Shown: positions 2,669 through 54,637, counted from the stretch's first letter. The stretch is 58,454 nucleotides of DNA from an uncultured Candidatus Saccharibacteria bacterium (GCA_964425625.1 CAYRMI010000002.1:1-58454), one strand, 5' to 3'. Made by a program: numbers and translations. The notes: generated by a model not told the origin, from the sequence alone.

Positions 2669-3382
2669 ATGAACACACAAAATATTATTAATGCCACTTG
2701 GCAATCCTTAGTTGCTTCCACTCTAGCCATCGCTATAGTGGCGGTTAGCTTCTTTATTATTGAGCCTCAGATGGGTCAGGCAGCCACTAGTGGTCCATTT
2801 ACCATCAAGACTACTATTACCGATGAGATATCCTTTACCGCTAATGCTACCAACGTCACAGCGACTGGTTCTATTAATGGTATTACTGGAGGTACCGCTA
2901 ACGGTTCGACTAGTGTCACAGTGCGTACCAACAGCAACACTGGCTATAGTATGACGATTGCTTTTGCAAGCAACTCGACAGACAATGCCATGAAAGGAGA
3001 TGTGAGTGGTAGTACAGCAATTCACGACTATCCAGCAGTATCATCGACTACGCCAACCTTCCTGTTTTCCACCGCTAGTACCTCTTCGGTGTTTGGTTAT
3101 ACCGTGAGTGCGGATGCCGGTGCTACTGACTTGGCCCAGGCTTTCTTGGATGATGGAGCTGATTGTAATATTCCAATCGGTAGTGGTGGAGCTTACACCG
3201 CAGACCGCTGTTGGATGGAACCAATGACTAGTGCTTTTGAAATAATCGATCGAGGCACAGCGGCTGCTTCTGGCGCCACTAGTACGATCCACTTCCGCGT
3301 GCATGTACCAAACCTACCTAACCCATCGCTAGTAGCCGACACTTATACGGCCACGGCAACCTTGACAGCAGTTAACCAGTAG
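2669..3382 (+). CDS. Secreted WxL-like / pilin-like beta-sandwich protein (paralog 1)
   Basis: N-terminal hydrophobic signal ending near PQMGQA. Motifs GGTANGSTSVTV, GYSMTI and C-terminal TYTATATLTA resemble WxL-fold strands. One Cys pair. Confidence 0.6.
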   Translation: MNTQNIINATWQSLVASTLAIAIVAVSFFIIEPQMGQAATSGPFTIKTTITDEISFTANATNVTATGSINGITGGTANGSTSVTVRTNSNTGYSMTIAFASNSTDNAMKGDVSGSTAIHDYPAVSSTTPTFLFSTASTSSVFGYTVSADAGATDLAQAFLDDGADCNIPIGSGGAYTADRCWMEPMTSAFEIIDRGTAAASGATSTIHFRVHVPNLPNPSLVADTYTATATLTAVNQ

Positions 3383-3402: not shown

Positions 3403-4461
3403 ATGACTACAAAAATGTGTGTTCAATTTTGTATCTCTATTGTAGTAGCTGGTTTGGCCATAAGTTTTTTGCCTAACGTTGGTCTAGCCCAAGACAACAC
3501 CCCCACTTCTGATGAGGGTGTTGTTGCTAGTTCTACCGAAATAACTAGTCCAGTGGTGGTGGAGGAAATCCCTTGGTTTCGTATCGAGAAGTTGACGGGT
3601 GATAATCAAGCGATCGGTGACTTTGTGGTGGGGCCAGGGCGGGCGGAGATAGAAGTAAAGCCTGGTCAGACGGTGATTTATGAAATATCAGTCTCAAACC
3701 GAATTAGTGATAATCGCATCTTTGAGCTGACGGTGGAAGACGTGGCTGGTTCAAATGATGCCAGTCAAGCGGTGGTATTGCTCGGTGACGCGGTCGGACC
3801 ATACACGATTAAGGACTATATTTCTTTCCCTAAAAATACCTTCACCCTTCGCCTAGGGGAAAGAGCTCGTATTCCAGTAACGGTATCCATACCACCAAAC
3901 GCTGCTCCGGGTGGCTATTATGGTAGTGTGCTCGTGTCTACAGTGCAGGAAGAGCCCTTAAGTGAAGGACAGACCACTAGGTCACCTATTGTCGCTAGGG
4001 TGGGGACACTATTTTTTGTGACGGTGCCTGGGGAAATGAAATATGAAGGAGAAACCAAAGCTTTGACTCTAAAAAATAATCGTTTTTGGTATGAGAAAGG
4101 ACCGATAGTTTTAAATGTAATTTACGAAAATACTGGTTCGGTTCACCTTAATCCCTACGGCGAATTGCGCATCAAGAATCTGTTTGGTGAGGAGGTAGGT
4201 TTTGTTGAGTTGGAACCTTGGTTTGTTCTCCCTAAATCACTTCGTTCACGAGAAGTGACTTGGGATCGAGAATTGTTGTTTGGGCGCTATGTGGCTAGTG
4301 TCAGCATTAACCGTGGCTACGAGGATATAGTCGATGAGCAATCAGTGGTCTTTTGGGTCTTGCCGTGGAAAGTGGTAGCTGGTATTTTTGCTCTGGTATT
4401 TATCATCTTCTTTGGTTTTAGAATCTTCTTTAGAACGTTTGAGTTTAAACGCAAGACTTAG
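3403..4461 (+). CDS. DUF916/DUF3324-like (CscA-like) membrane-anchored protein
   Basis: Signal peptide; IPVTVSIPPNAAPGGYYGSVLVS...RVGTLFFVTVPG; NTGSVHLNPYGELRIKNLFG; C-terminal TM helix followed by basic tail FKRKT. Confidence 0.65.
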   Translation: MTTKMCVQFCISIVVAGLAISFLPNVGLAQDNTPTSDEGVVASSTEITSPVVVEEIPWFRIEKLTGDNQAIGDFVVGPGRAEIEVKPGQTVIYEISVSNRISDNRIFELTVEDVAGSNDASQAVVLLGDAVGPYTIKDYISFPKNTFTLRLGERARIPVTVSIPPNAAPGGYYGSVLVSTVQEEPLSEGQTTRSPIVARVGTLFFVTVPGEMKYEGETKALTLKNNRFWYEKGPIVLNVIYENTGSVHLNPYGELRIKNLFGEEVGFVELEPWFVLPKSLRSREVTWDRELLFGRYVASVSINRGYEDIVDEQSVVFWVLPWKVVAGIFALVFIIFFGFRIFFRTFEFKRKT

Positions 4462-4470
4462 CTTGTCTCT

Positions 4471-5238
4471 ATGACGCTTCGTTCCTTTACAATCTTGACA
4501 GCAGAAACTCTAGTCTTGACGGGAGTAATTTTGTCTATTTTGTTAGTTGGGGAAGCACAGGTACGGACTAGTACGAGCTATAAGTTAGAAAGTGATAGTA
4601 TCAACTTCGGTGGTGGTTTATCGTCTTCTTCCAACTATTCCCTAGAAAGTACCGGAGGGGAGATAGCAACCGGTAAGTCAGACAGTGCTTCCTATAGCTT
4701 GAGGGCTGGCTATCAGCAGATGCAAGAGGTGTTTATTAGTATGACAGCCCCTGGAAATGTAATAATGACGCCCAGTATAGGCGGTCTTACTGGCGGTACG
4801 GCTAATGGTTCAACTAGTGTGAATGTAATAACGGATAGTCCAAGTGGCTATTCACTAACCATCAGGGCTGAGAGTTCGCCTGCTATGCAAAAAGGGGCTG
4901 ATACTATAAATGACTACGTACCAGAAGCGTCACCCAATCCCGACCCGTCATTTATCACCGCTGCTACTGATGCCCACTTCGGCTTTTCGCCCCAAGGGTC
5001 TGATGTGGTTTTGCGATACCGAAATAATAGTTCAATTTGTAGTGCTGGTTCTCTTAGTACGGCAGAGGTTTGTTGGGATGGGTTTTCAACGTCAGAAAAA
5101 TTACTAGCCTCTGGGGGTGACAATCAACCCAGTGGCGCCACTACCACGCTTTACTTTAAGGTAGAACTGGGCGGTAATGTGACTAGACCGCCAGGAGCTT
5201 ATATTGCCACTACTACCTTAACTGCTTTGCCACTATGA
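4471..5238 (+). CDS. Secreted WxL-like protein (paralog 2) with extra Ser/Tyr-rich N-terminal segment
   Basis: Shares GGTANGSTSV, GYSLTI, a Cys pair, SGATTTLYF and GAYIATTTLTA with 2669-3382. Confidence 0.6.
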   Translation: MTLRSFTILTAETLVLTGVILSILLVGEAQVRTSTSYKLESDSINFGGGLSSSSNYSLESTGGEIATGKSDSASYSLRAGYQQMQEVFISMTAPGNVIMTPSIGGLTGGTANGSTSVNVITDSPSGYSLTIRAESSPAMQKGADTINDYVPEASPNPDPSFITAATDAHFGFSPQGSDVVLRYRNNSSICSAGSLSTAEVCWDGFSTSEKLLASGGDNQPSGATTTLYFKVELGGNVTRPPGAYIATTTLTALPL

Positions 5239-22962: not shown

Positions 22963-23018
22963 GCTTAAGTCACAAAAATACCTTTGCTTAAAAGCAAAGG
23001 TATTTTTGTTACTTAAGC
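22963..23018. terminator. Long hairpin between convergent genes
   Basis: ACAAAAATACCTTTGCTT..AAGCAAAGGTATTTTTGT extended by GCTTAAGT/ACTTAAGC. Confidence 0.75.
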
Positions 23019-28596: not shown

Positions 28597-30366
28597 TTAA
28601 AGTTTCTTAGTCTCAATTTCGGTCAAAAGATGATTGCCTAACTTATGAAGGTCAATTTGTTTACTTTCTCCACTACGCGATTCTAGAGTGACATTTTTAG
28701 CTTCTACTTCTTGGTCACCAATTACAACAAAGTAAGGGAGTTTGGCTTGCTTAGCCGAACGTATCTTCTTACCCATTGAATCACGCGCATCATCAAAAGT
28801 GGCACGGATACCGACAGCCTTTAGAGCATGGTAAACTTCTTCAGCATAAGGCATATGCACATCAGCTACTGGAATAATCCGCACTTGTTCGGGCGCTAGC
28901 CAGAGTGGGAAGTGGCCGGCTAAGTGTTCAATCAAGACTGCACTAAAACGTTCAATTGAACCCATAATGGCACAGTGAATCATAACAATACGTTCTTTCT
29001 CTCCTTTCTCATTGATACAAGTCAGATCAAAGCGCTCAGGTAAGTTCATGTCAAGTTGAATAGTGGCAACTTGATGTTCACGACCTAGTGAGTCCTTGGC
29101 CATAAAGTCCAACTTTGGACCGTACATGGCGGCTTCTCCAGGAGCTTCGAAGTAATTAGCGTTTCTTTCTTTTGCAATTTCTCGTAATGAATTTTCAGCA
29201 CTGTCCCAAATCTCTTTTGTCCCTAAATATTTACTCAGCTCTGTTGGTTCGTGAAAGGAGAGGCGAACTCTAAGGTTGAAACCAAAGGTACTATAGAAAG
29301 TATCTATAATGTCCCAGATTTTGAAGAACTCCTCTTTTACTTGTGCATGACGACAGAAGACATGAGAATCATCTTGGGTAATCGAAAGAACACGAGTAAG
29401 TCCGCCTAGTTCGCCTGATTGTTCATCCCGGTAAACCATCGTAGTTTCGGCATAGCGTTGAGGCATGTCACGGTAACTGTGTGGTTGGCGGTCAAATATC
29501 TGCGTGTGATGGGGGCAATTCATGGGCTTGAGAGCGTATTCTTTGCCCTCTCTGGTAGTGATACGGAAAAGCTCATCAGCAAATTTTTCCCAATGACCAG
29601 ATGTAACATAAAGGTCTTTTTTTGTGATATGAGGAATTGTCACTCGCTGATAGCCATGTTTTTCTCGTAATTGCCAGATGTAAGTATCGAGTTGATGCCT
29701 AATCATGGTGCCTTTGGGTGTCCAGAGCGGAAGCCCAGCTCCGACGAGTTCTGAGAAGGTAAATAAATCATGTTCCTTACCAAGTTTGCGGTGGTCGCGC
29801 TTTTTTGCTTCCTCAATTTGATTAAGATAGGCATCGAGCTCGTCTTTTGAGTTAAAAGCCAGACCATAGATACGACTAAGCATAGGTTTTTTTTCATCAC
29901 CTCGCCAGTAGGCGCCAGCGACTTTGTCGAGCTTGAAACTATCGGCAGGAATTTCTTCATGCGGATTTTCGGTATGACCACCACGACAAAGGTCAATAAA
30001 TTCACTTTTACCGGTACCACAAGTGTAGAGGGTGATGGTTTCGTCCCGGCTAGCAATCTCGTCGATAAGTTCTAGCTTATAGGGGTTGCCAGCAAATATT
30101 TGTTTGGCTTCCTCTGGCGTTACTTCTTTATGAGACCAGGTAGTCCAAGTATTGAGCAGTTTTTTCATCGCTTTTTCTATATCTTTGAGACTATCATCAC
30201 CCAAGGTTGGGCCACCGGAGAAATCGACGTCATAGTAAAAACCAGTATCGATGGCTGGCCCTAAGGTAAGTTTGGCATGAGGATAGGCGTCTAGGATAGC
30301 TTTGGCCATTACGTGTGCTAGAGTGTGGCGCTTAAATTCTAGTGCTGGGTTTTGTTGACTGCGCAT
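28597..30366 (-). CDS. thrS: Threonine--tRNA ligase (lacks the N-terminal TGS domain)
   Basis: RHTLAH, DLCRGGH, RDHRKLG, KPMNCP, YRDEQSGEL, IQLD, HCAIMGSIERF. Confidence 0.96.
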   Translation of the reverse strand: MRSQQNPALEFKRHTLAHVMAKAILDAYPHAKLTLGPAIDTGFYYDVDFSGGPTLGDDSLKDIEKAMKKLLNTWTTWSHKEVTPEEAKQIFAGNPYKLELIDEIASRDETITLYTCGTGKSEFIDLCRGGHTENPHEEIPADSFKLDKVAGAYWRGDEKKPMLSRIYGLAFNSKDELDAYLNQIEEAKKRDHRKLGKEHDLFTFSELVGAGLPLWTPKGTMIRHQLDTYIWQLREKHGYQRVTIPHITKKDLYVTSGHWEKFADELFRITTREGKEYALKPMNCPHHTQIFDRQPHSYRDMPQRYAETTMVYRDEQSGELGGLTRVLSITQDDSHVFCRHAQVKEEFFKIWDIIDTFYSTFGFNLRVRLSFHEPTELSKYLGTKEIWDSAENSLREIAKERNANYFEAPGEAAMYGPKLDFMAKDSLGREHQVATIQLDMNLPERFDLTCINEKGEKERIVMIHCAIMGSIERFSAVLIEHLAGHFPLWLAPEQVRIIPVADVHMPYAEEVYHALKAVGIRATFDDARDSMGKKIRSAKQAKLPYFVVIGDQEVEAKNVTLESRSGESKQIDLHKLGNHLLTEIETKKL

Positions 30367-30394
30367 ATTTATGTTTTATTCTTTAATAATGTGA

Positions 30395-30596
30395 ACAAAT
30401 AAACGCCCGAGCGAAAATATGACAGGAGTCATATTTTCGCTCGGGCGTTCTTTTCCTAAGAAAGTCGCGGTTCCACCGAGTTTCCGGTCAGTAAATTGAC
30501 CGCTTCTAAGCTACAGATTAGGGAATTTTTTCTTCCAACAACCTTTCGGTTAACCGAAAGGTTGTCTAGTGTTTGGTAGACACCACAATCTCTGTT
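30395..30596 (-). ncRNA. T-box riboswitch leader of thrS
   Basis: Minus strand: CTCGG-TGGAACC-GCG...CGC-CCGAG antiterminator. Overlapping 22-bp terminator (30402-30449) followed by TTTATTT. Stem III CGGTCA/TGACCG precedes the T-box. Confidence 0.85.
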
Positions 30597-30602
30597 TTAA
30601 TT

Positions 30603-30630
30603 ATCGTATCATGCCCACCATTCCAGTCAA
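30603..30630 (-). promoter_or_regulatory. thrS promoter
   Basis: Minus strand TTGACT-16-TACGAT with TG extension, just upstream of the T-box leader. Confidence 0.6.
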
Positions 30631-30675: not shown

Positions 30676-30715
30676 ACCCGCTAAATCTACCTGTTAACAG
30701 GTAGATTTAGCGGGT
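30676..30715. repeat. 40-bp perfect palindrome, family A copy 2
   Basis: ACCCGCTAAATCTACCTGTT|AACAGGTAGATTTAGCGGGT; contains the stop codon of the TrpR-like gene. Confidence 0.95.
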
Positions 30716-31111
30716 CTTGAATGCGCGATTATATATTCTGGACCTGGCTCGAGAACTTACTTTTGCGAGAATTAAGTCTTGTATTAGTTCCACAAATTCG
30801 TTTTTTTCTTTTTTGCTTAGACAGTTGAGTAGGTTGTCAAATTGTCCGTCTTCATATTGTTTATAAATTCTTTGTGCGGTTGAGATACTTACACCCAAAG
30901 CCAGGGCTGTGCGGTAGGTAGAGAAATCATCATTAAAAAGAAGTGCAGCAGCGAATCTTTTGATAATCATTATTTTTTCCGCTTCAGTAAAGAGATCATT
31001 GATAAATACAGAAGCAGTTTGGTTGTTAAGTTTTGAGATTAGCTGAACTAATTTCTGGTGGGCGTGTTTATAGTCAGCACTATCGATTTGCAATTTTGAG
31101 ACGTTGGTCAT
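30707..31111 (-). CDS. TrpR-like (YerC/YecD family) helix-turn-helix regulator
   Basis: LFTEAEKIMIIKRFAAALLF...STYRTALALGVSISTAQRI fits the TrpR-family LT..E...L..R......L....SY..I....G.S..TI.R pattern. Confidence 0.75.
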   Translation of the reverse strand: MTNVSKLQIDSADYKHAHQKLVQLISKLNNQTASVFINDLFTEAEKIMIIKRFAAALLFNDDFSTYRTALALGVSISTAQRIYKQYEDGQFDNLLNCLSKKEKNEFVELIQDLILAKVSSRARSRIYNRAFKTR

Positions 31112-31117
31112 TGTTTA

Positions 31118-31159
31118 AGTATACCCCTAAATCTACCTGTTAACAGGTAGATTTAGGGG
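31118..31159 (-). promoter_or_regulatory. -10 box (TATACT, 31118-31123) abutting 36-bp palindrome family A copy 3 (31124-31159); candidate operator
   Basis: CCCCTAAATCTACCTGTT|AACAGGTAGATTTAGGGG covers the spacer/-35 zone. The ATG is 6 nt after the -10 box. Confidence 0.7.
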
Positions 31160-31194: not shown

Positions 31195-34100
31195 TTATTT
31201 TTGAGATTGAGGATTTGGGCTAGAGCTAAGGAGCTTAGCACGATCTATGGCAATCGAGGGTTCTTCGTTGCGGATGGTTAGTTTACCTTTGATAGCGATA
31301 CAACTGCCCAAAGTAAATAAAAGTTTTAGTTCAGTGTAGGTCTTGGGGAAGGCAACCATTTCGATTTGGTCATGAGTATCAGCTAACGTAACAAAGGCCA
31401 TTTTTTCGCCCTTTTTGGTAATGAGTTCGCGCACAGCCACCACCATTCCAGCGGTAACTAATTCACCCTTAAGACGAAGTATCGCCAGCTCATTTTTTTC
31501 GGTGACGGCACTTATAATTGAGCCGATACTGGGACGTTTGGCCAGTTCATCCATATAAGCATCAAGTGGATGTCCGGATACATAGACTCCTAGCAGATCT
31601 TTTTCCCAAGTGAGCATTTGGTTTTTGGGAATTGCTTCGGACGGAATCAGGTTTAATGTTTCCTCATTGTTAAGTCCACCAAAAAGTGAGACCTGAGATG
31701 ATTCTTGGCCGGCCATATGCTCCTTGTTAAAAGTCAGTAGCAAATCAAGATTGGCGTACATTGCTCCACGGTCATTAAGTGAGTCAAAGGCACCGGCCAT
31801 GATAAGGGCTTCGAGCGATTTTTTGTTTAAACTACGGTCATGAATGCGGGTGAGAAAATTGGAGAGAGAAGTAAAAGATCCTTTGGCTTTACGTTCGGCA
31901 ATAATTGCTTCTGCAATACCTTCACCAAAATTCTTGATAGTAGCCAGTCCGAATCGAATTGTTTCCTTGCCAGGTACAACCGTAAAGTCTGCAAATGATT
32001 CATTGATATCTGGTGGCAGTACTTCAATCCCCATACGCCCACATTCGCGGATAATTTCGGCGATTTTATCGTTATCGCCAGAGTCGGCCGTGAGGACGGC
32101 CGACATATACTCGACCGGAAAGTTAGCTTTCATGTACGCTGTCTGATAGGCTACGCGACCATAACTAGCAGCGTGAGCCTTATTGAAACCATAGGCAGCG
32201 AAGGGTTCAATTAGGCTCCAAAGCTTTTGGGCGAGATTTGGTGAAAGTTTGCCATACTCTATAAAGCCAGTAAGAAGTTTGTTTTTTTCGGCCGCCATTA
32301 CTTCAGGGATTTTCTTACCCATGGCTTTACGCAACATGTCGGCCTCGAGCCAACTATAACCAGCCAAGATGCGAGCAATAGCCATAACATCGTCTTGGTA
32401 GGTGACTACTCCATAAGAACGATTAAGGACATTCTCCAGCCTAGGGTCTAAATAGGTCACGAGCGTAGGGTTGTGTTTGCGTTCTATGTATTGCGGAATA
32501 GATTCCATTGGTCCAGGACGGTAAAGGGCTACCATGGCGTTTATATCGTGTATAGTAGAAGGCTTCAGTTGCTTGAGAAAGGCGGTCATACCTCCGCCGT
32601 TGAGTTGAAAGAGGCCCATAGTCTCGCCCCGGGCTAGGATGTTGAAAGTTTTTTGGTCATTAAGTGGAATGTTTTCGATATCGACTGCCACATTACGGAT
32701 TTTTTTTACTCGCTTGACGGCATCAGCCAAAATAGCTAAGTTTTTTATACCCAAAAAATCAAACTTAAGTAGACCAACACCATCTTCACCGACACTTTTC
32801 ATCTCATATTGAGTGATAAATTTACCGGACTTAGGGTCTGGTTGGATGGGTACGAATTTATTAAGTGGTTCCGGAGCAATCACTACACCAGCGGCATGCA
32901 CACCAAGGTGACGAACCCGACCCTCGATACGTTTAGCTAGGTCAATCACTTCCCGAGACTCAGCGTCTTTTTTGTAGAGTTCAGCGAGGTCTGGTTCTAT
33001 TTCTAGGGCTTTGGTGATGGTCATAGGGAAACCCTGACTACCGATGGGAATGAGTTTGGCTATGCGGTCGCCAGTGGAGTAAGGGTGACCAAGCGCGCGG
33101 GCCACGTCGCGCACAGCGGCACGGGCCATCATGGTACCAAAGGTACCAATTTGCGCGACCTTGTCGGCACCGTATTTTGTCTTGGCGTATTCAATTATTT
33201 CATCACGCCGATTATCAGCAAAGTCCATATCAATATCAGGTGCTGAAGGTCGCTCGGGATTGAGGAAGCGTTCGAAGGGAAGATTATATTCAAGTGGATC
33301 TACGTTGGTAATACCAAGTACGTAGGTAGTGAGAGAGCCGGCCACCGAACCGCGTATGGTAGTAAGGATACCGCGTTCGCGCGATTCACGGAGTAAGTCA
33401 CCGACTACTAAGAAGTATTTGGCGTAACCTTTGGTCTTGATCACACTAAGTTCATAATCAAGTCGGTCCTTAATGGCTTTATCATTTGGGTCTAGTTTGC
33501 GCCAAGTCAGACCAGAGTAGGCTGTGGCCATAAGTTCTTCGTCTGGATTTTTACCACTCTCAATCGGGTAATCAGGAAAATACCAATGTGTGCCAATTTC
33601 GATTTCAACCTGGCAAGACTCAGCAATTTTCACTGTATTGGACAAGGCCTCAGGGTTGTCCTTGAAGTACTCTTTGGCCTGCTCTTGGGTAATGAAGGAA
33701 AAATCTTCACCGGAGTCTATGTCGCTTGTGGTATCTACTACGCCACCGTTTTGGATTTTGATTAGTACCTCGCGAGCAATTCTATCGTCGGGCTTCAGGT
33801 AGTAGACATCGTGAGCAGCAACTAGTGGGGTGTTAGTTTGATCGGCTAAGTTAATAATTTTTGTTTGGATTTTTTGGTGGTCCAAGACTTCCGGGTGATG
33901 TGATATTTCCAAAAAGCAATTTTCACCAAAAACCCTTTTGTACCAATCGAGTCTTTCCGAGGCGTGCTCTGTTCGATCGTCTTTATAGGCTCTAGCTACT
34001 TCTCCGGCAAAGGAGGGTATGATGCAGACTATATCTTCCGCATATCGTTTTAGAAGTTCGTCATCGACCCGCGGCCGATAATAAAAACCTTCAAGGTTTG

Positions 34101-34443
34101 AGTCGGTGACTAACTTGATAAGATTTTGGTAGCCGGTAAATGTTTTAGCCAAGAGGACCAGGCGGGCTCGGGGCTTATCAATAGCTTCCTTGTTATGGCG
34201 GGTGCGGGGAGCTAAGTACGCATCAAGACCAATGATCGGTTTGATCCCTTCTTTGGTACAGGCTTTATAGAAATCAATCGCTCCGTAAAGAGCACCATTG
34301 TCAGTTAGAGCCAAGGCTGTTTGATTATCGGCTTTGGCCTCATGCGCTAGTTCCTTTGGGGTAGGGAGAGCGTTTAGAAGTGAGTAGTGCGAGTGTACAT
34401 GAAGGTGGACAAAGCTTGAGTTTAGGGGTTTCTGGTCAGACAT
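31195..34443 (-). CDS. dnaE: DNA polymerase III alpha subunit
   Basis: HLHVHSHYSLL (PHP), RGSVAGSL, FERFLNPER..PDIDMDF, KFDFLG, YGFNKAH, OB-fold KKGEKMAFV. Confidence 0.97.
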   Translation of the reverse strand: MSDQKPLNSSFVHLHVHSHYSLLNALPTPKELAHEAKADNQTALALTDNGALYGAIDFYKACTKEGIKPIIGLDAYLAPRTRHNKEAIDKPRARLVLLAKTFTGYQNLIKLVTDSNLEGFYYRPRVDDELLKRYAEDIVCIIPSFAGEVARAYKDDRTEHASERLDWYKRVFGENCFLEISHHPEVLDHQKIQTKIINLADQTNTPLVAAHDVYYLKPDDRIAREVLIKIQNGGVVDTTSDIDSGEDFSFITQEQAKEYFKDNPEALSNTVKIAESCQVEIEIGTHWYFPDYPIESGKNPDEELMATAYSGLTWRKLDPNDKAIKDRLDYELSVIKTKGYAKYFLVVGDLLRESRERGILTTIRGSVAGSLTTYVLGITNVDPLEYNLPFERFLNPERPSAPDIDMDFADNRRDEIIEYAKTKYGADKVAQIGTFGTMMARAAVRDVARALGHPYSTGDRIAKLIPIGSQGFPMTITKALEIEPDLAELYKKDAESREVIDLAKRIEGRVRHLGVHAAGVVIAPEPLNKFVPIQPDPKSGKFITQYEMKSVGEDGVGLLKFDFLGIKNLAILADAVKRVKKIRNVAVDIENIPLNDQKTFNILARGETMGLFQLNGGGMTAFLKQLKPSTIHDINAMVALYRPGPMESIPQYIERKHNPTLVTYLDPRLENVLNRSYGVVTYQDDVMAIARILAGYSWLEADMLRKAMGKKIPEVMAAEKNKLLTGFIEYGKLSPNLAQKLWSLIEPFAAYGFNKAHAASYGRVAYQTAYMKANFPVEYMSAVLTADSGDNDKIAEIIRECGRMGIEVLPPDINESFADFTVVPGKETIRFGLATIKNFGEGIAEAIIAERKAKGSFTSLSNFLTRIHDRSLNKKSLEALIMAGAFDSLNDRGAMYANLDLLLTFNKEHMAGQESSQVSLFGGLNNEETLNLIPSEAIPKNQMLTWEKDLLGVYVSGHPLDAYMDELAKRPSIGSIISAVTEKNELAILRLKGELVTAGMVVAVRELITKKGEKMAFVTLADTHDQIEMVAFPKTYTELKLLFTLGSCIAIKGKLTIRNEEPSIAIDRAKLLSSSPNPQSQK

Positions 34444-54590: not shown

Positions 54591-54637
54591 AAAGGCCACC
54601 GAGCACCTCCCCTTTGGGGAGGTGCTCGGTGGCCTTT
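54591..54637 (+). terminator. 22-bp perfect hairpin after rpoC
   Basis: AAAGGCCACCGAGCACCTCCCC-TTT-GGGGAGGTGCTCGGTGGCCTTT. Confidence 0.8.

Follow-up and report, generated by a model that had tools for sequence, protein, structure and literature searches.

Repressor genes bracketed by their own operators, with looping between the sites, are exemplified by lambda cI, which lies between OR and OL, and by lacI, with O3 at its 3' end; genes for DNA-binding proteins that lie beside the proteins' own sites, few and dispersed, are found in the Tus/TerB system and in that of the Bacillus subtilis replication terminator protein (RTP) and IR-I. Within the TrpR superfamily, the autoregulation of TrpR and HisR via an upstream palindrome is already well known; operators of the TrpR family follow the consensus TGTAcTnGTnnACnAgTACA, those of HisR are 20-bp palindromes with the consensus cacTTTAnnnnnnTAAAgtg, and about half of the hisR genes are preceded by a site of their own (PMC9413887). 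The subject of the present paper is a small helix-turn-helix (HTH) gene of this superfamily, identified in a DNA stretch of 58,454 nucleotides from an uncultured Candidatus Saccharibacteria bacterium (GCA_964425625.1, CAYRMI010000002.1:1-58454; the whole stretch is called here the window), which is enclosed, between positions 30,676 and 31,159, by two long perfect palindromes; comparison with related loci indicates that this palindrome-gene-palindrome arrangement is most likely a conserved self-regulating module, neither a chance feature nor a jumping gene. No paper describing the protein family or the bracket architecture was found in a literature search, and what appears to be new is a large, uncharacterised branch of the TrpR superfamily in Patescibacteria, with co-varying predicted operators at both ends of the gene; Patescibacteria, ultra-small bacteria also referred to as the Candidate Phyla Radiation (CPR), have very few transcription factors, and their gene regulation is almost uncharted.

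The elements of the module, numbered from the first letter of the window, are the following:

30707 to 31111, minus strand: gene for the TrpR-superfamily HTH protein, 134 residues (open reading frame (ORF) call)
31124 to 31159, no strand: upstream palindrome, 36 bp, perfect, presumed primary operator (sequence, repeat finder)
30676 to 30715, no strand: downstream palindrome, 40 bp, perfect, presumed second operator and 3' hairpin (sequence, repeat finder)
31118 to 31123, minus strand: -10 box TATACT, 6 nt upstream of the ATG (sequence)
31141 to 31146, minus strand: weak -35 element CTGTTA, inside the palindrome core (sequence)

As reported in the first-pass annotation of this DNA, the 134-residue gene is bracketed by perfect palindromes of 40 and 36 bp, found both in the sequence and by a repeat finder; the sequence that they were said to share is the 30-mer CTAAATCTACCTGTTAACAGGTAGATTTAG, and the downstream copy does supply the stop codon, the TAA at 30709-30707 (minus strand) lying inside its left arm. 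The 16-mer TACCTGTTAACAGGTA at their centre has three exact occurrences in the window, against an expectation of 0.41 even when three mismatches are allowed, and close inverted repeats with arms of at least 20 nt number only three in the 58 kb. The gene is placed between dnaE (31195-34443) and thrS (28597-30366), all three being on the minus strand; the upstream palindrome lies 35 nt past the dnaE stop codon, and the downstream one about 45 nt upstream of the -35 element of the thrS promoter. Read along the minus strand, the upstream palindrome gives way at once to TATACT (31123-31118), after which come TAAACA and the ATG (31111), and no Shine-Dalgarno sequence precedes this ATG; the palindrome spans the spacer and the -35 zone of the gene's own promoter, so that its earlier description as abutting the -10 box and covering this region is accurate. 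Since the -10 box sits 6 nt before the ATG, the mRNA would be leaderless.

Related loci were gathered by protein (a metagenome scan and look-ups of exact proteins), by palindrome (a genome scan) and from distant representatives. Each of the 24 loci that contain a family member has a palindrome, equivalent to that of the window, immediately upstream of the ATG, and a second one at the stop codon or just past it wherever the contig holds that end, its centre being in most cases 10-12 nt past the stop codon; the bracketed loci range from 81% protein identity to distant relatives found by profile alone (E about 1e-17 to 1e-22). Of the 24 loci, 21 have a TAnnnT hexamer whose end is 3-10 nt (mostly 6 nt) away from the ATG that follows; its usual form is TATAAT, TATACT or TATAGT, spaced by exactly 6 nt, and no Shine-Dalgarno sequence separates -10 box and ATG in the related loci examined. 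The position of the palindrome relative to this box varies: it contains the box in some loci (centre about 18-20 nt from the ATG), adjoins it in others, the window included (about 30 nt), and covers the -35 element in further ones (about 41-45 nt). To judge from this conservation, the layout would be the classical geometry of autorepression at a leaderless promoter.

The locus-specific 16-mer core, searched with up to two mismatches in 222 kb of loci, is confined to the two flanking positions, with two exceptions: a solo copy in the window, discussed below, and a third copy behind the neighbouring gene in the loci L038-L040. The arrangement dnaE-X-thrS, in which X stands for the bracketed gene, is retained down to 47-50% protein identity in the lineage of the window, and the bracket thus seems to be maintained by selection and not to result from a recent insertion. 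The finer taxonomy of one locus, L004, is uncertain; it is labelled Saccharibacteria in the genome collection, and the identical protein is listed at NCBI under Paceibacterota.

The cores of the two sites of a locus are shared and lineage-specific (CTGTTAACAG, CGATTAATCG, AATGTTAACATT, TATCGATATATCGATA or TACCGATATATCGGTA; in their context, ..CCTGTTAACAGG.., ..GCTGTTAACAGC.., ..CACTGTTAACAGTG.., ..C(C/G)GATTAATC(G/C)G.., ..TAATGTTAACATTA.., ..TATCGATATATCGATA.. and ..TACCGATATATCGGTA..). Over the central 24 nt, identity averages 20.6 of 24 positions within a locus and 15.5 of 24 between loci, the within-locus value being reached by none of 20,000 permutations (p<5e-5). A change in the protein goes along with one such change of core: in the MTH- subclade the CGATTAATCG core is present in each of the four members, whose recognition helix has STS(Q/R)L in place of the ST(A/T/S)(Q/H)R of the others. 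Beyond this correlation of an R-to-L replacement with the core, no amino-acid-to-base code could be read from the five operator classes. The first-pass claim that differences between copies always preserve perfect symmetry is true of the window and too strong for the relatives, in which several sites carry one or two asymmetric mismatches.

The protein can be placed, as a divergent member, in a branch of the TrpR superfamily that extends across the Patescibacteria; it is orthologous neither to TrpR nor to HisR/YerC. Its earlier assignment to the "TrpR family" stands at the superfamily level only: the profiles of the family, its distant members and the predicted fold agree on a TrpR-like protein, and the protein's own Pfam score is below threshold. 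Trp_repressor (PF01371) gives 21.3 bits (E 2.9e-4) against a cut-off of 27, and HTH_23, with 27.2 bits, is above its cut-off; the TrpR equivalog model TIGR01321 of NCBIfam gives 17.3 of the 67.25 bits required for a TrpR orthologue, and the YerC/YecD model has no NCBIfam match to the window protein at E<=1. Among close relatives, 16 of 21 family members match PF01371 at E<0.01, and distant members (profile E 1e-16 to 1e-22) exceed its cut-off, with 40.2 bits for P0056, 38.5 for P0150 and 40.9 for P0170; a precomputed PF01371 match is present on most of the 120 relatives listed, and homologues are annotated by JGI as "YerC". A family profile compared with the PDB gives significant matches only to the TrpR-like entries 3g1c (E 1.6e-4), 3frw and 3kor. 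An AlphaFold2 (AF2) monomer model is all-helical, with nine helices, a predicted local distance difference test (pLDDT) value of 88 and a predicted template modelling (pTM) score of 0.76, and the first 20 Foldseek matches in the PDB are all TrpR or TrpR-like (target-normalised TM 0.48-0.77), with probabilities up to 1.0 and E-values of only 0.1-1; compared with TrpR and HisR, the model has two extra C-terminal helices, and the recognition helix is located around SISTAQRIYKQY.

An HMMER scan of 1.84 billion representatives yielded 1,232 clusters, counted at 50% identity, at E<=1e-3 (409 at E<=1e-10), nearly all of 125-145 residues, and the named source organisms are all Patescibacteria, for example Taylor-, Nomura-, Wolfe-, Giovannoni- and Niyogibacteria. 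As far as the ligand is concerned, a by-eye alignment places T44, R54 and R84 of TrpR at the conserved T42, R52 and the R of STAQR, the equivalents of T44, R54, I79, T81 and R84 being retained; the conserved arginines at the positions of R54 and R84, which contact Trp in TrpR, are only a hint that a corepressor may be contacted. CPR bacteria generally lack the tryptophan pathway, and the window was rightly described as free of trp genes, none being found among its ORFs of at least 110 residues.

As to the nature of the sites, the central 4 nt are self-complementary in all 43 correctly located sites, which favours recognition by a symmetric dimer on duplex DNA, because the loop of an RNA hairpin needs no such centre. 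The sites also resemble known operators in sequence: the core of the solo copy, TGTACCTGTTAACAGGTACA, matches the consensus TGTAcTnGTnnACnAgTACA at 18 of 20 positions and the gene-flanking copies at 16 of 20; the matches to the E. coli trp operator previously counted, 14 of 18 for copy 1 (which is also 18/20 to TGTAcTnGTnnACnAgTACA) and 12 of 18 for copies 2 and 3, are arithmetically correct. On the other hand the outer arms, the right arm of the downstream site, which complements the last codons of the gene, and the locus L024 considered below indicate that hairpin formation and homogenisation of the copies have shaped the sites as well; the sites are thus read as predicted operators embedded in hairpins.

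According to the mechanism that we consider probable, a dimer with the TrpR fold would bind the palindromes, recognising a dyad site of the form (C)TAAAT-N-TACCTGTTAACAGGTA-N-ATTTA(G), and the upstream site would serve the negative autoregulation of a leaderless promoter. This site overlaps a promoter of the sigma-70 type that would produce a leaderless mRNA, and a protein bound there would repress its own transcription. The downstream copy would be a second operator that might also fold, in the transcript, into a long 3' hairpin; once occupied, it might act together with the upstream site by way of a loop of some 446 bp of DNA, the extra C-terminal helices possibly mediating the contact; in addition or instead, it might block or terminate transcription and so insulate the gene from thrS. 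The few copies at the 3' ends of other genes would be additional binding sites. The earlier proposal of an autorepressor acting at both ends of its gene receives strong comparative support from the bracket itself, the covariation, the overlap with the promoter and the resemblance to operators.

A number of observations weigh against this mechanism. The distance between the centres of the two sites ranges from 416 to 468 bp (446 bp in the window), and the helical phasing is not conserved. Beyond a core of about 26 bp the outer arms are variable among lineages and nevertheless symmetric, up to 54 bp of perfect palindrome in L022, which fits selection for a hairpin better than protein contacts. 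In L024 the two flanking sites (2485-2510 and 2944-2969) have an identical asymmetric centre, CCTGTTAAAAGG, in the same orientation, a pattern more readily explained by gene conversion between the copies than by symmetry having been selected in each; some of the likeness of the sites within a locus may accordingly have arisen otherwise than by co-evolution with the protein. The metagenome-assembled genome (MAG) JTS-AC481 contains five palindromes and only a 16-codon remnant of the gene (in L009); this MAG being fragmented, the gene may simply be unassembled. Finally, the placement of the solo copies at the 3' ends of genes is odd for a classical repressor.

The solo copy of the window is the following:

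2464 to 2501, no strand: solo palindrome copy, 38 bp, perfect, candidate extra binding site (sequence)

It reads TCCCCTAAATGTACCTGTTAACAGGTACATTTAGGGGA, with one symmetric G/C change with respect to the gene-flanking copies, and lies 56 nt past the stop codon of the ORF 552-2408 and 168 nt before the ORF 2669-3382. In a genome scan the core was also found in several Patescibacteria MAGs at a distance from any family member: 13 nt past the gene for a PolB-like exonuclease, 23 nt past dnaG and before rpoD, and in the gap between convergent glycosyltransferase and rodA genes, the latter site being the same in two related MAGs. All solo copies with a clear context are at gene 3' ends, two of them between convergent genes and none between divergent genes, and no common functional theme emerges from their neighbours (PolB-like exonuclease/glycoside hydrolase GH1, dnaG/rpoD, glycosyltransferase/RodA, GDSL lipase, NYN). 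A scatter of palindromes over gene 3' ends, unconnected with TrpR-like genes, had been named in advance as the pattern that would speak against a regulator; the solo copies do have this placement, and the link to the family is very strong. They may be extra binding sites acting as boundaries or roadblocks, or else terminators that acquired the core. It is accordingly conceivable, if rather unlikely, that the protein is in addition a boundary factor of transcription units, acting at 3'-end palindromes (those at both ends of its own gene, at the dnaG/rpoD junction and in gaps between convergent genes) as a roadblock, terminator or insulator and possibly bridging them. If this were true, the protein would be the bacterial counterpart, with a TrpR fold, of termination factors bound to DNA, the bracketed gene would be the self-calibrating core of the system, and protein-dependent boundaries at the downstream and solo sites would represent a new mode of delimiting bacterial transcription units.

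Some observations concern the surroundings of the solo copies and of the core. The first 4,000 nt of the window have a GC content of 0.52, compared with 0.42-0.47 in mid-window (up to 0.48 near the 3' end), and a negative GC skew; the ORF 552-2408 codes for 618 residues rich in Thr, Gly and Ser, it is followed by secreted-looking ORFs with no Pfam match, and these may be acquired surface proteins. A further hairpin lies at 2520-2560, after the solo palindrome. The 16-mer core is present in three non-CPR genomes, namely L012 (2934-2973; Limnofasciculus, a cyanobacterium), L014 (Daejeonella) and L008, one of the occurrences being part of a perfect palindrome of 40 bp whose arms are unrelated; a family member was not detected nearby, and these may be chance hairpins or something related.

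A purely structural explanation, in which the palindromes are terminators or RNase III sites at gene 3' ends and involve no specific protein, is improbable. In its favour, every copy, the solo ones included, lies just past a stop codon, the copies are predicted to form highly stable RNA hairpins (-32 to -36 kcal/mol, z -5.6 to -8.5; for the downstream palindrome, -36 kcal/mol, z -5.6), the arms that differ among lineages keep their symmetry, and an RNase III gene is present in the window; the genome also employs long perfect hairpins (stems of 22-27 bp) directly after gyrB (22963-23018) and rpoC (54591-54637), and such long-stem hairpins at gene ends appear to be its usual terminators. Ordinary terminators, however, are unique, and here a core of 16-26 nt is common to both sites and conserved across Patescibacteria, with a centre whose constant self-complementarity a loop does not require; moreover, the upstream copy, being upstream of the -10 box or overlapping it, is outside the gene's own mRNA, and in L004 it measures merely 16 bp. 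No U-tract directly follows the hairpins of the window in the transcribed direction: the downstream copy has its T-run about 15 nt away on the minus strand, and that of the upstream copy is on the opposite strand. At gathering thresholds, Rfam recognised only a tRNA in the window and left the palindromes unmatched; at E<=10, weak and likely chance matches alone overlap them.

Quite improbable, in turn, is the possibility that the whole unit is a mobile or recombination cassette. On this view the palindromes would resemble att sites or terminal inverted repeats (TIRs), and each solo copy would mark an empty site or a footprint; the HTH protein, in the same equally improbable proposal, would be either a DNA-binding domain descended from a transposase or a factor controlling the directionality of recombination. 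The intact unit does occur in at least six neighbourhoods (dnaE-X-thrS, dprA-X-topA, proS-X-mreB, holin-X-secA, glutaredoxin-X and secY-adk-map-X) and must therefore have moved over deep time; solo palindromes exist, the HTH_23 match is joined by weak matches to the N-termini of IS630 and IS481 transposases, the 11-6-11 layout recalls Xer-type sites, and in JTS-AC481 a palindrome is duplicated together with about 170 nt. The idea of a cassette of the kind of repetitive extragenic palindromes (REPs) is nevertheless not supported, given the stable synteny down to 47-50% protein identity and a low copy number (three palindromes in 58 kb, two or three per related locus and one to five per MAG in the genome scan); Pfam and NCBIfam show no catalytic or transposase domain in the 134 residues, no recombinase is adjacent, no target-site duplication or direct repeat is visible around 30676/31159, and both the protein family and a 22-nt palindrome pattern are absent from 2.9 million viral contigs. 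In addition, the flanking palindromes often differ from each other in their arms, each being perfectly symmetric (L018, L019 and L022), which crossover in the spacer of an att-like site would not produce. An insertion sequence (IS) or a miniature inverted-repeat transposable element (MITE) was discarded in view of the missing direct repeat and catalytic domain, the stable dnaE-X-thrS position and the lack of viral matches, and a phage or other mobile origin in view of the viral contig collection.

The duplication in JTS-AC481, a Paceibacteria MAG, consists of a palindrome and about 170 nt resembling the thrS leader, present as a direct repeat (L010, 803-1000 and 1925-2120) on both sides of a gene for a NYN-domain protein, with a degenerate extra palindrome 95 nt upstream of the first repeat copy; in L009 (740-830) a palindrome, the promoter and the first four codons (MTNV) are fused to a terminator, and the site at 3750-3778 of L013 also belongs to the palindromes of this MAG. 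The repeats look like local duplication and decay of the module.

Recognition by another factor, such as a restriction-modification system or other reader of GTTAAC or a nucleoid protein, which would make the palindromes an input and not a means of autoregulation, is the least probable of the explanations, for although GTTAAC is a type II restriction site and the solo copies lie away from obvious promoters, the hexamer has an ordinary frequency in the window, with no avoidance or enrichment (14 observed, 17.9 expected; the restriction-site idea was dropped on this ground), the centre turns into ATTAAT or ATAT elsewhere with the bracket persisting around the TrpR-like family only, the R-to-L change of the recognition helix tracks the change of core, and the site resembles operators of the TrpR family.

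Returning to the autoregulatory module, a possible extension of its regulon is suggested by the loci L038-L040, in which the lineage palindrome is also present after the next gene (in L038, sites at 4393-4410 and 4799-4816), so that this neighbour is bracketed too; it codes for a membrane protein of 121 residues with a HELIH (HExxH) motif, its promoter region is the downstream site of the regulator gene, and it is a candidate direct target of the regulator. For the module as a whole, what emerges is a family comprising 1,200 clusters or more (50% identity) with a predicted lineage-specific operator and a conserved putative leaderless promoter, and the natural variants of operator and recognition helix (CTGTTAACAG, CGATTAATCG and CGATATATCG) constitute a ready specificity series for which no culturing is needed.

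The palindromes are also of practical relevance, metagenome assemblies breaking or folding back at them. Logan unitigs from metagenomes break at both palindromes of the window, and the contig L013 stops inside the palindrome after dnaE; in the metagenome runs X1 and X3 the loose ends at 31124/31159 lead into a copy with two differences, CCGG feet and longer symmetric arms (AAAACAAAACCGG ... CCGGTTTTGTTTT), presumably from a related organism or another locus. The public contig from which L029 comes folds back perfectly on itself, each arm measuring at least 9,977 nt and the turning point falling exactly on the downstream palindrome, with a mirror duplication of dnaE and its neighbours; it is almost certainly an artefact of assembly.

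Beyond the bracketed gene, dnaE and thrS, the window carries housekeeping genes, among them gyrB, rpoBC, dnaG, smc and genes for pentose-phosphate enzymes and pilins. Together with the names given to homologues, the gene neighbourhood points to a CPR bacterium of the Parcubacteria type, from metagenomes of wastewater or freshwater. One further feature lies next to the module:

30367 to 30630, minus strand: thrS promoter (TTGACT-16-TACGAT) and short T-box-like leader, outside the module (sequence)

The leader (30397-30630, minus strand) contains an AGAGA..GCUACCAAC segment in which ACC, the Thr specifier, is followed by A, the T-box motif GGUGGAACCGCG and a terminator hairpin (30397-30454), elements that are conserved in an alignment of eight relatives. 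It looks like a short T-box riboswitch and may be a reduced form proper to CPR; the Rfam T-box score, with a cut-off of 93 bits, is 22.6 bits in the window and 28.6 bits (E 1e-4) in L026 (10482-10616). Within the leader, at 30538-30565, a perfect palindrome of 28 bp centred on GTTAAC (ACAACCTTTCGGTTAACCGAAAGGTTGT) is found; the closest relative, L017, has CCGTTCGGTTAACCGAACGG in its place, and most of the relatives, which are more distant, have none. It was considered as a second operator family and set aside as a variable stem of the thrS leader, outside the system.

Comparison with the described systems helps to place the module. To REPs, bacterial interspersed mosaic elements (BIMEs) and their REP-associated tyrosine transposases (RAYTs) it is related by the presence of palindromic repeats at gene 3' ends; REPs are, however, imperfect, exist in hundreds of copies and are associated with a Y1 transposase, whereas here few copies of perfect symmetry accompany an HTH regulator gene, and membership was rejected given this low copy number and an HTH gene with no transposase domain. 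With Tus and RTP it has in common a small sequence-specific protein, autoregulating sites adjacent to the gene and few intergenic sites irrespective of promoters; Ter sites are asymmetric, polar and clustered at the terminus, whereas the sites described here are symmetric, the fold is different and the window has no terminus. A parS-like or Ter-like role at origin or terminus was likewise abandoned, the GC skew being positive across the window and neither dnaA nor dnaN being near gyrB.

Among proteins of similar fold, the Firmicutes histidine repressor HisR (YerC-YecD; 3g1c, 3frw and 3kor) provides the best profile and structural matches in the PDB, at the superfamily level only; HisR has fewer than 100 residues, its consensus cacTTTAnnnnnnTAAAgtg is unlike the site of the window, a flanking downstream site has not been reported for it and is present here, and none of the window ORFs examined is a his gene, so that membership in HisR/YerC, which also lacks a model match, was ruled out. 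E. coli TrpR is similar in its small all-helical HTH fold (Foldseek matches 1trr, 1zt9 and 1tro) and in having, across the regulator's own promoter, a dyad of some 18-20 bp centred on a GTTAAC-type sequence. It differs from the present protein, which is below the curated cut-offs in sequence, is about 30 residues longer and ends in two extra helices; here trp genes are absent from the neighbourhood, CCTG replaces CTAG as the recognition motif, a second operator is predicted at the 3' end of the gene and the mRNA would be leaderless. Lambda cI and lacI, in which a repressor gene likewise stands between cognate operators and a 3' operator can loop or block elongation, are single cases with unrelated folds, whereas the bracket described here is family-wide and made of single long perfect palindromes; the unusual hallmark of the module is that the regulator gene is enclosed by two predicted sites of its own product, with its stop codon embedded in one of them.

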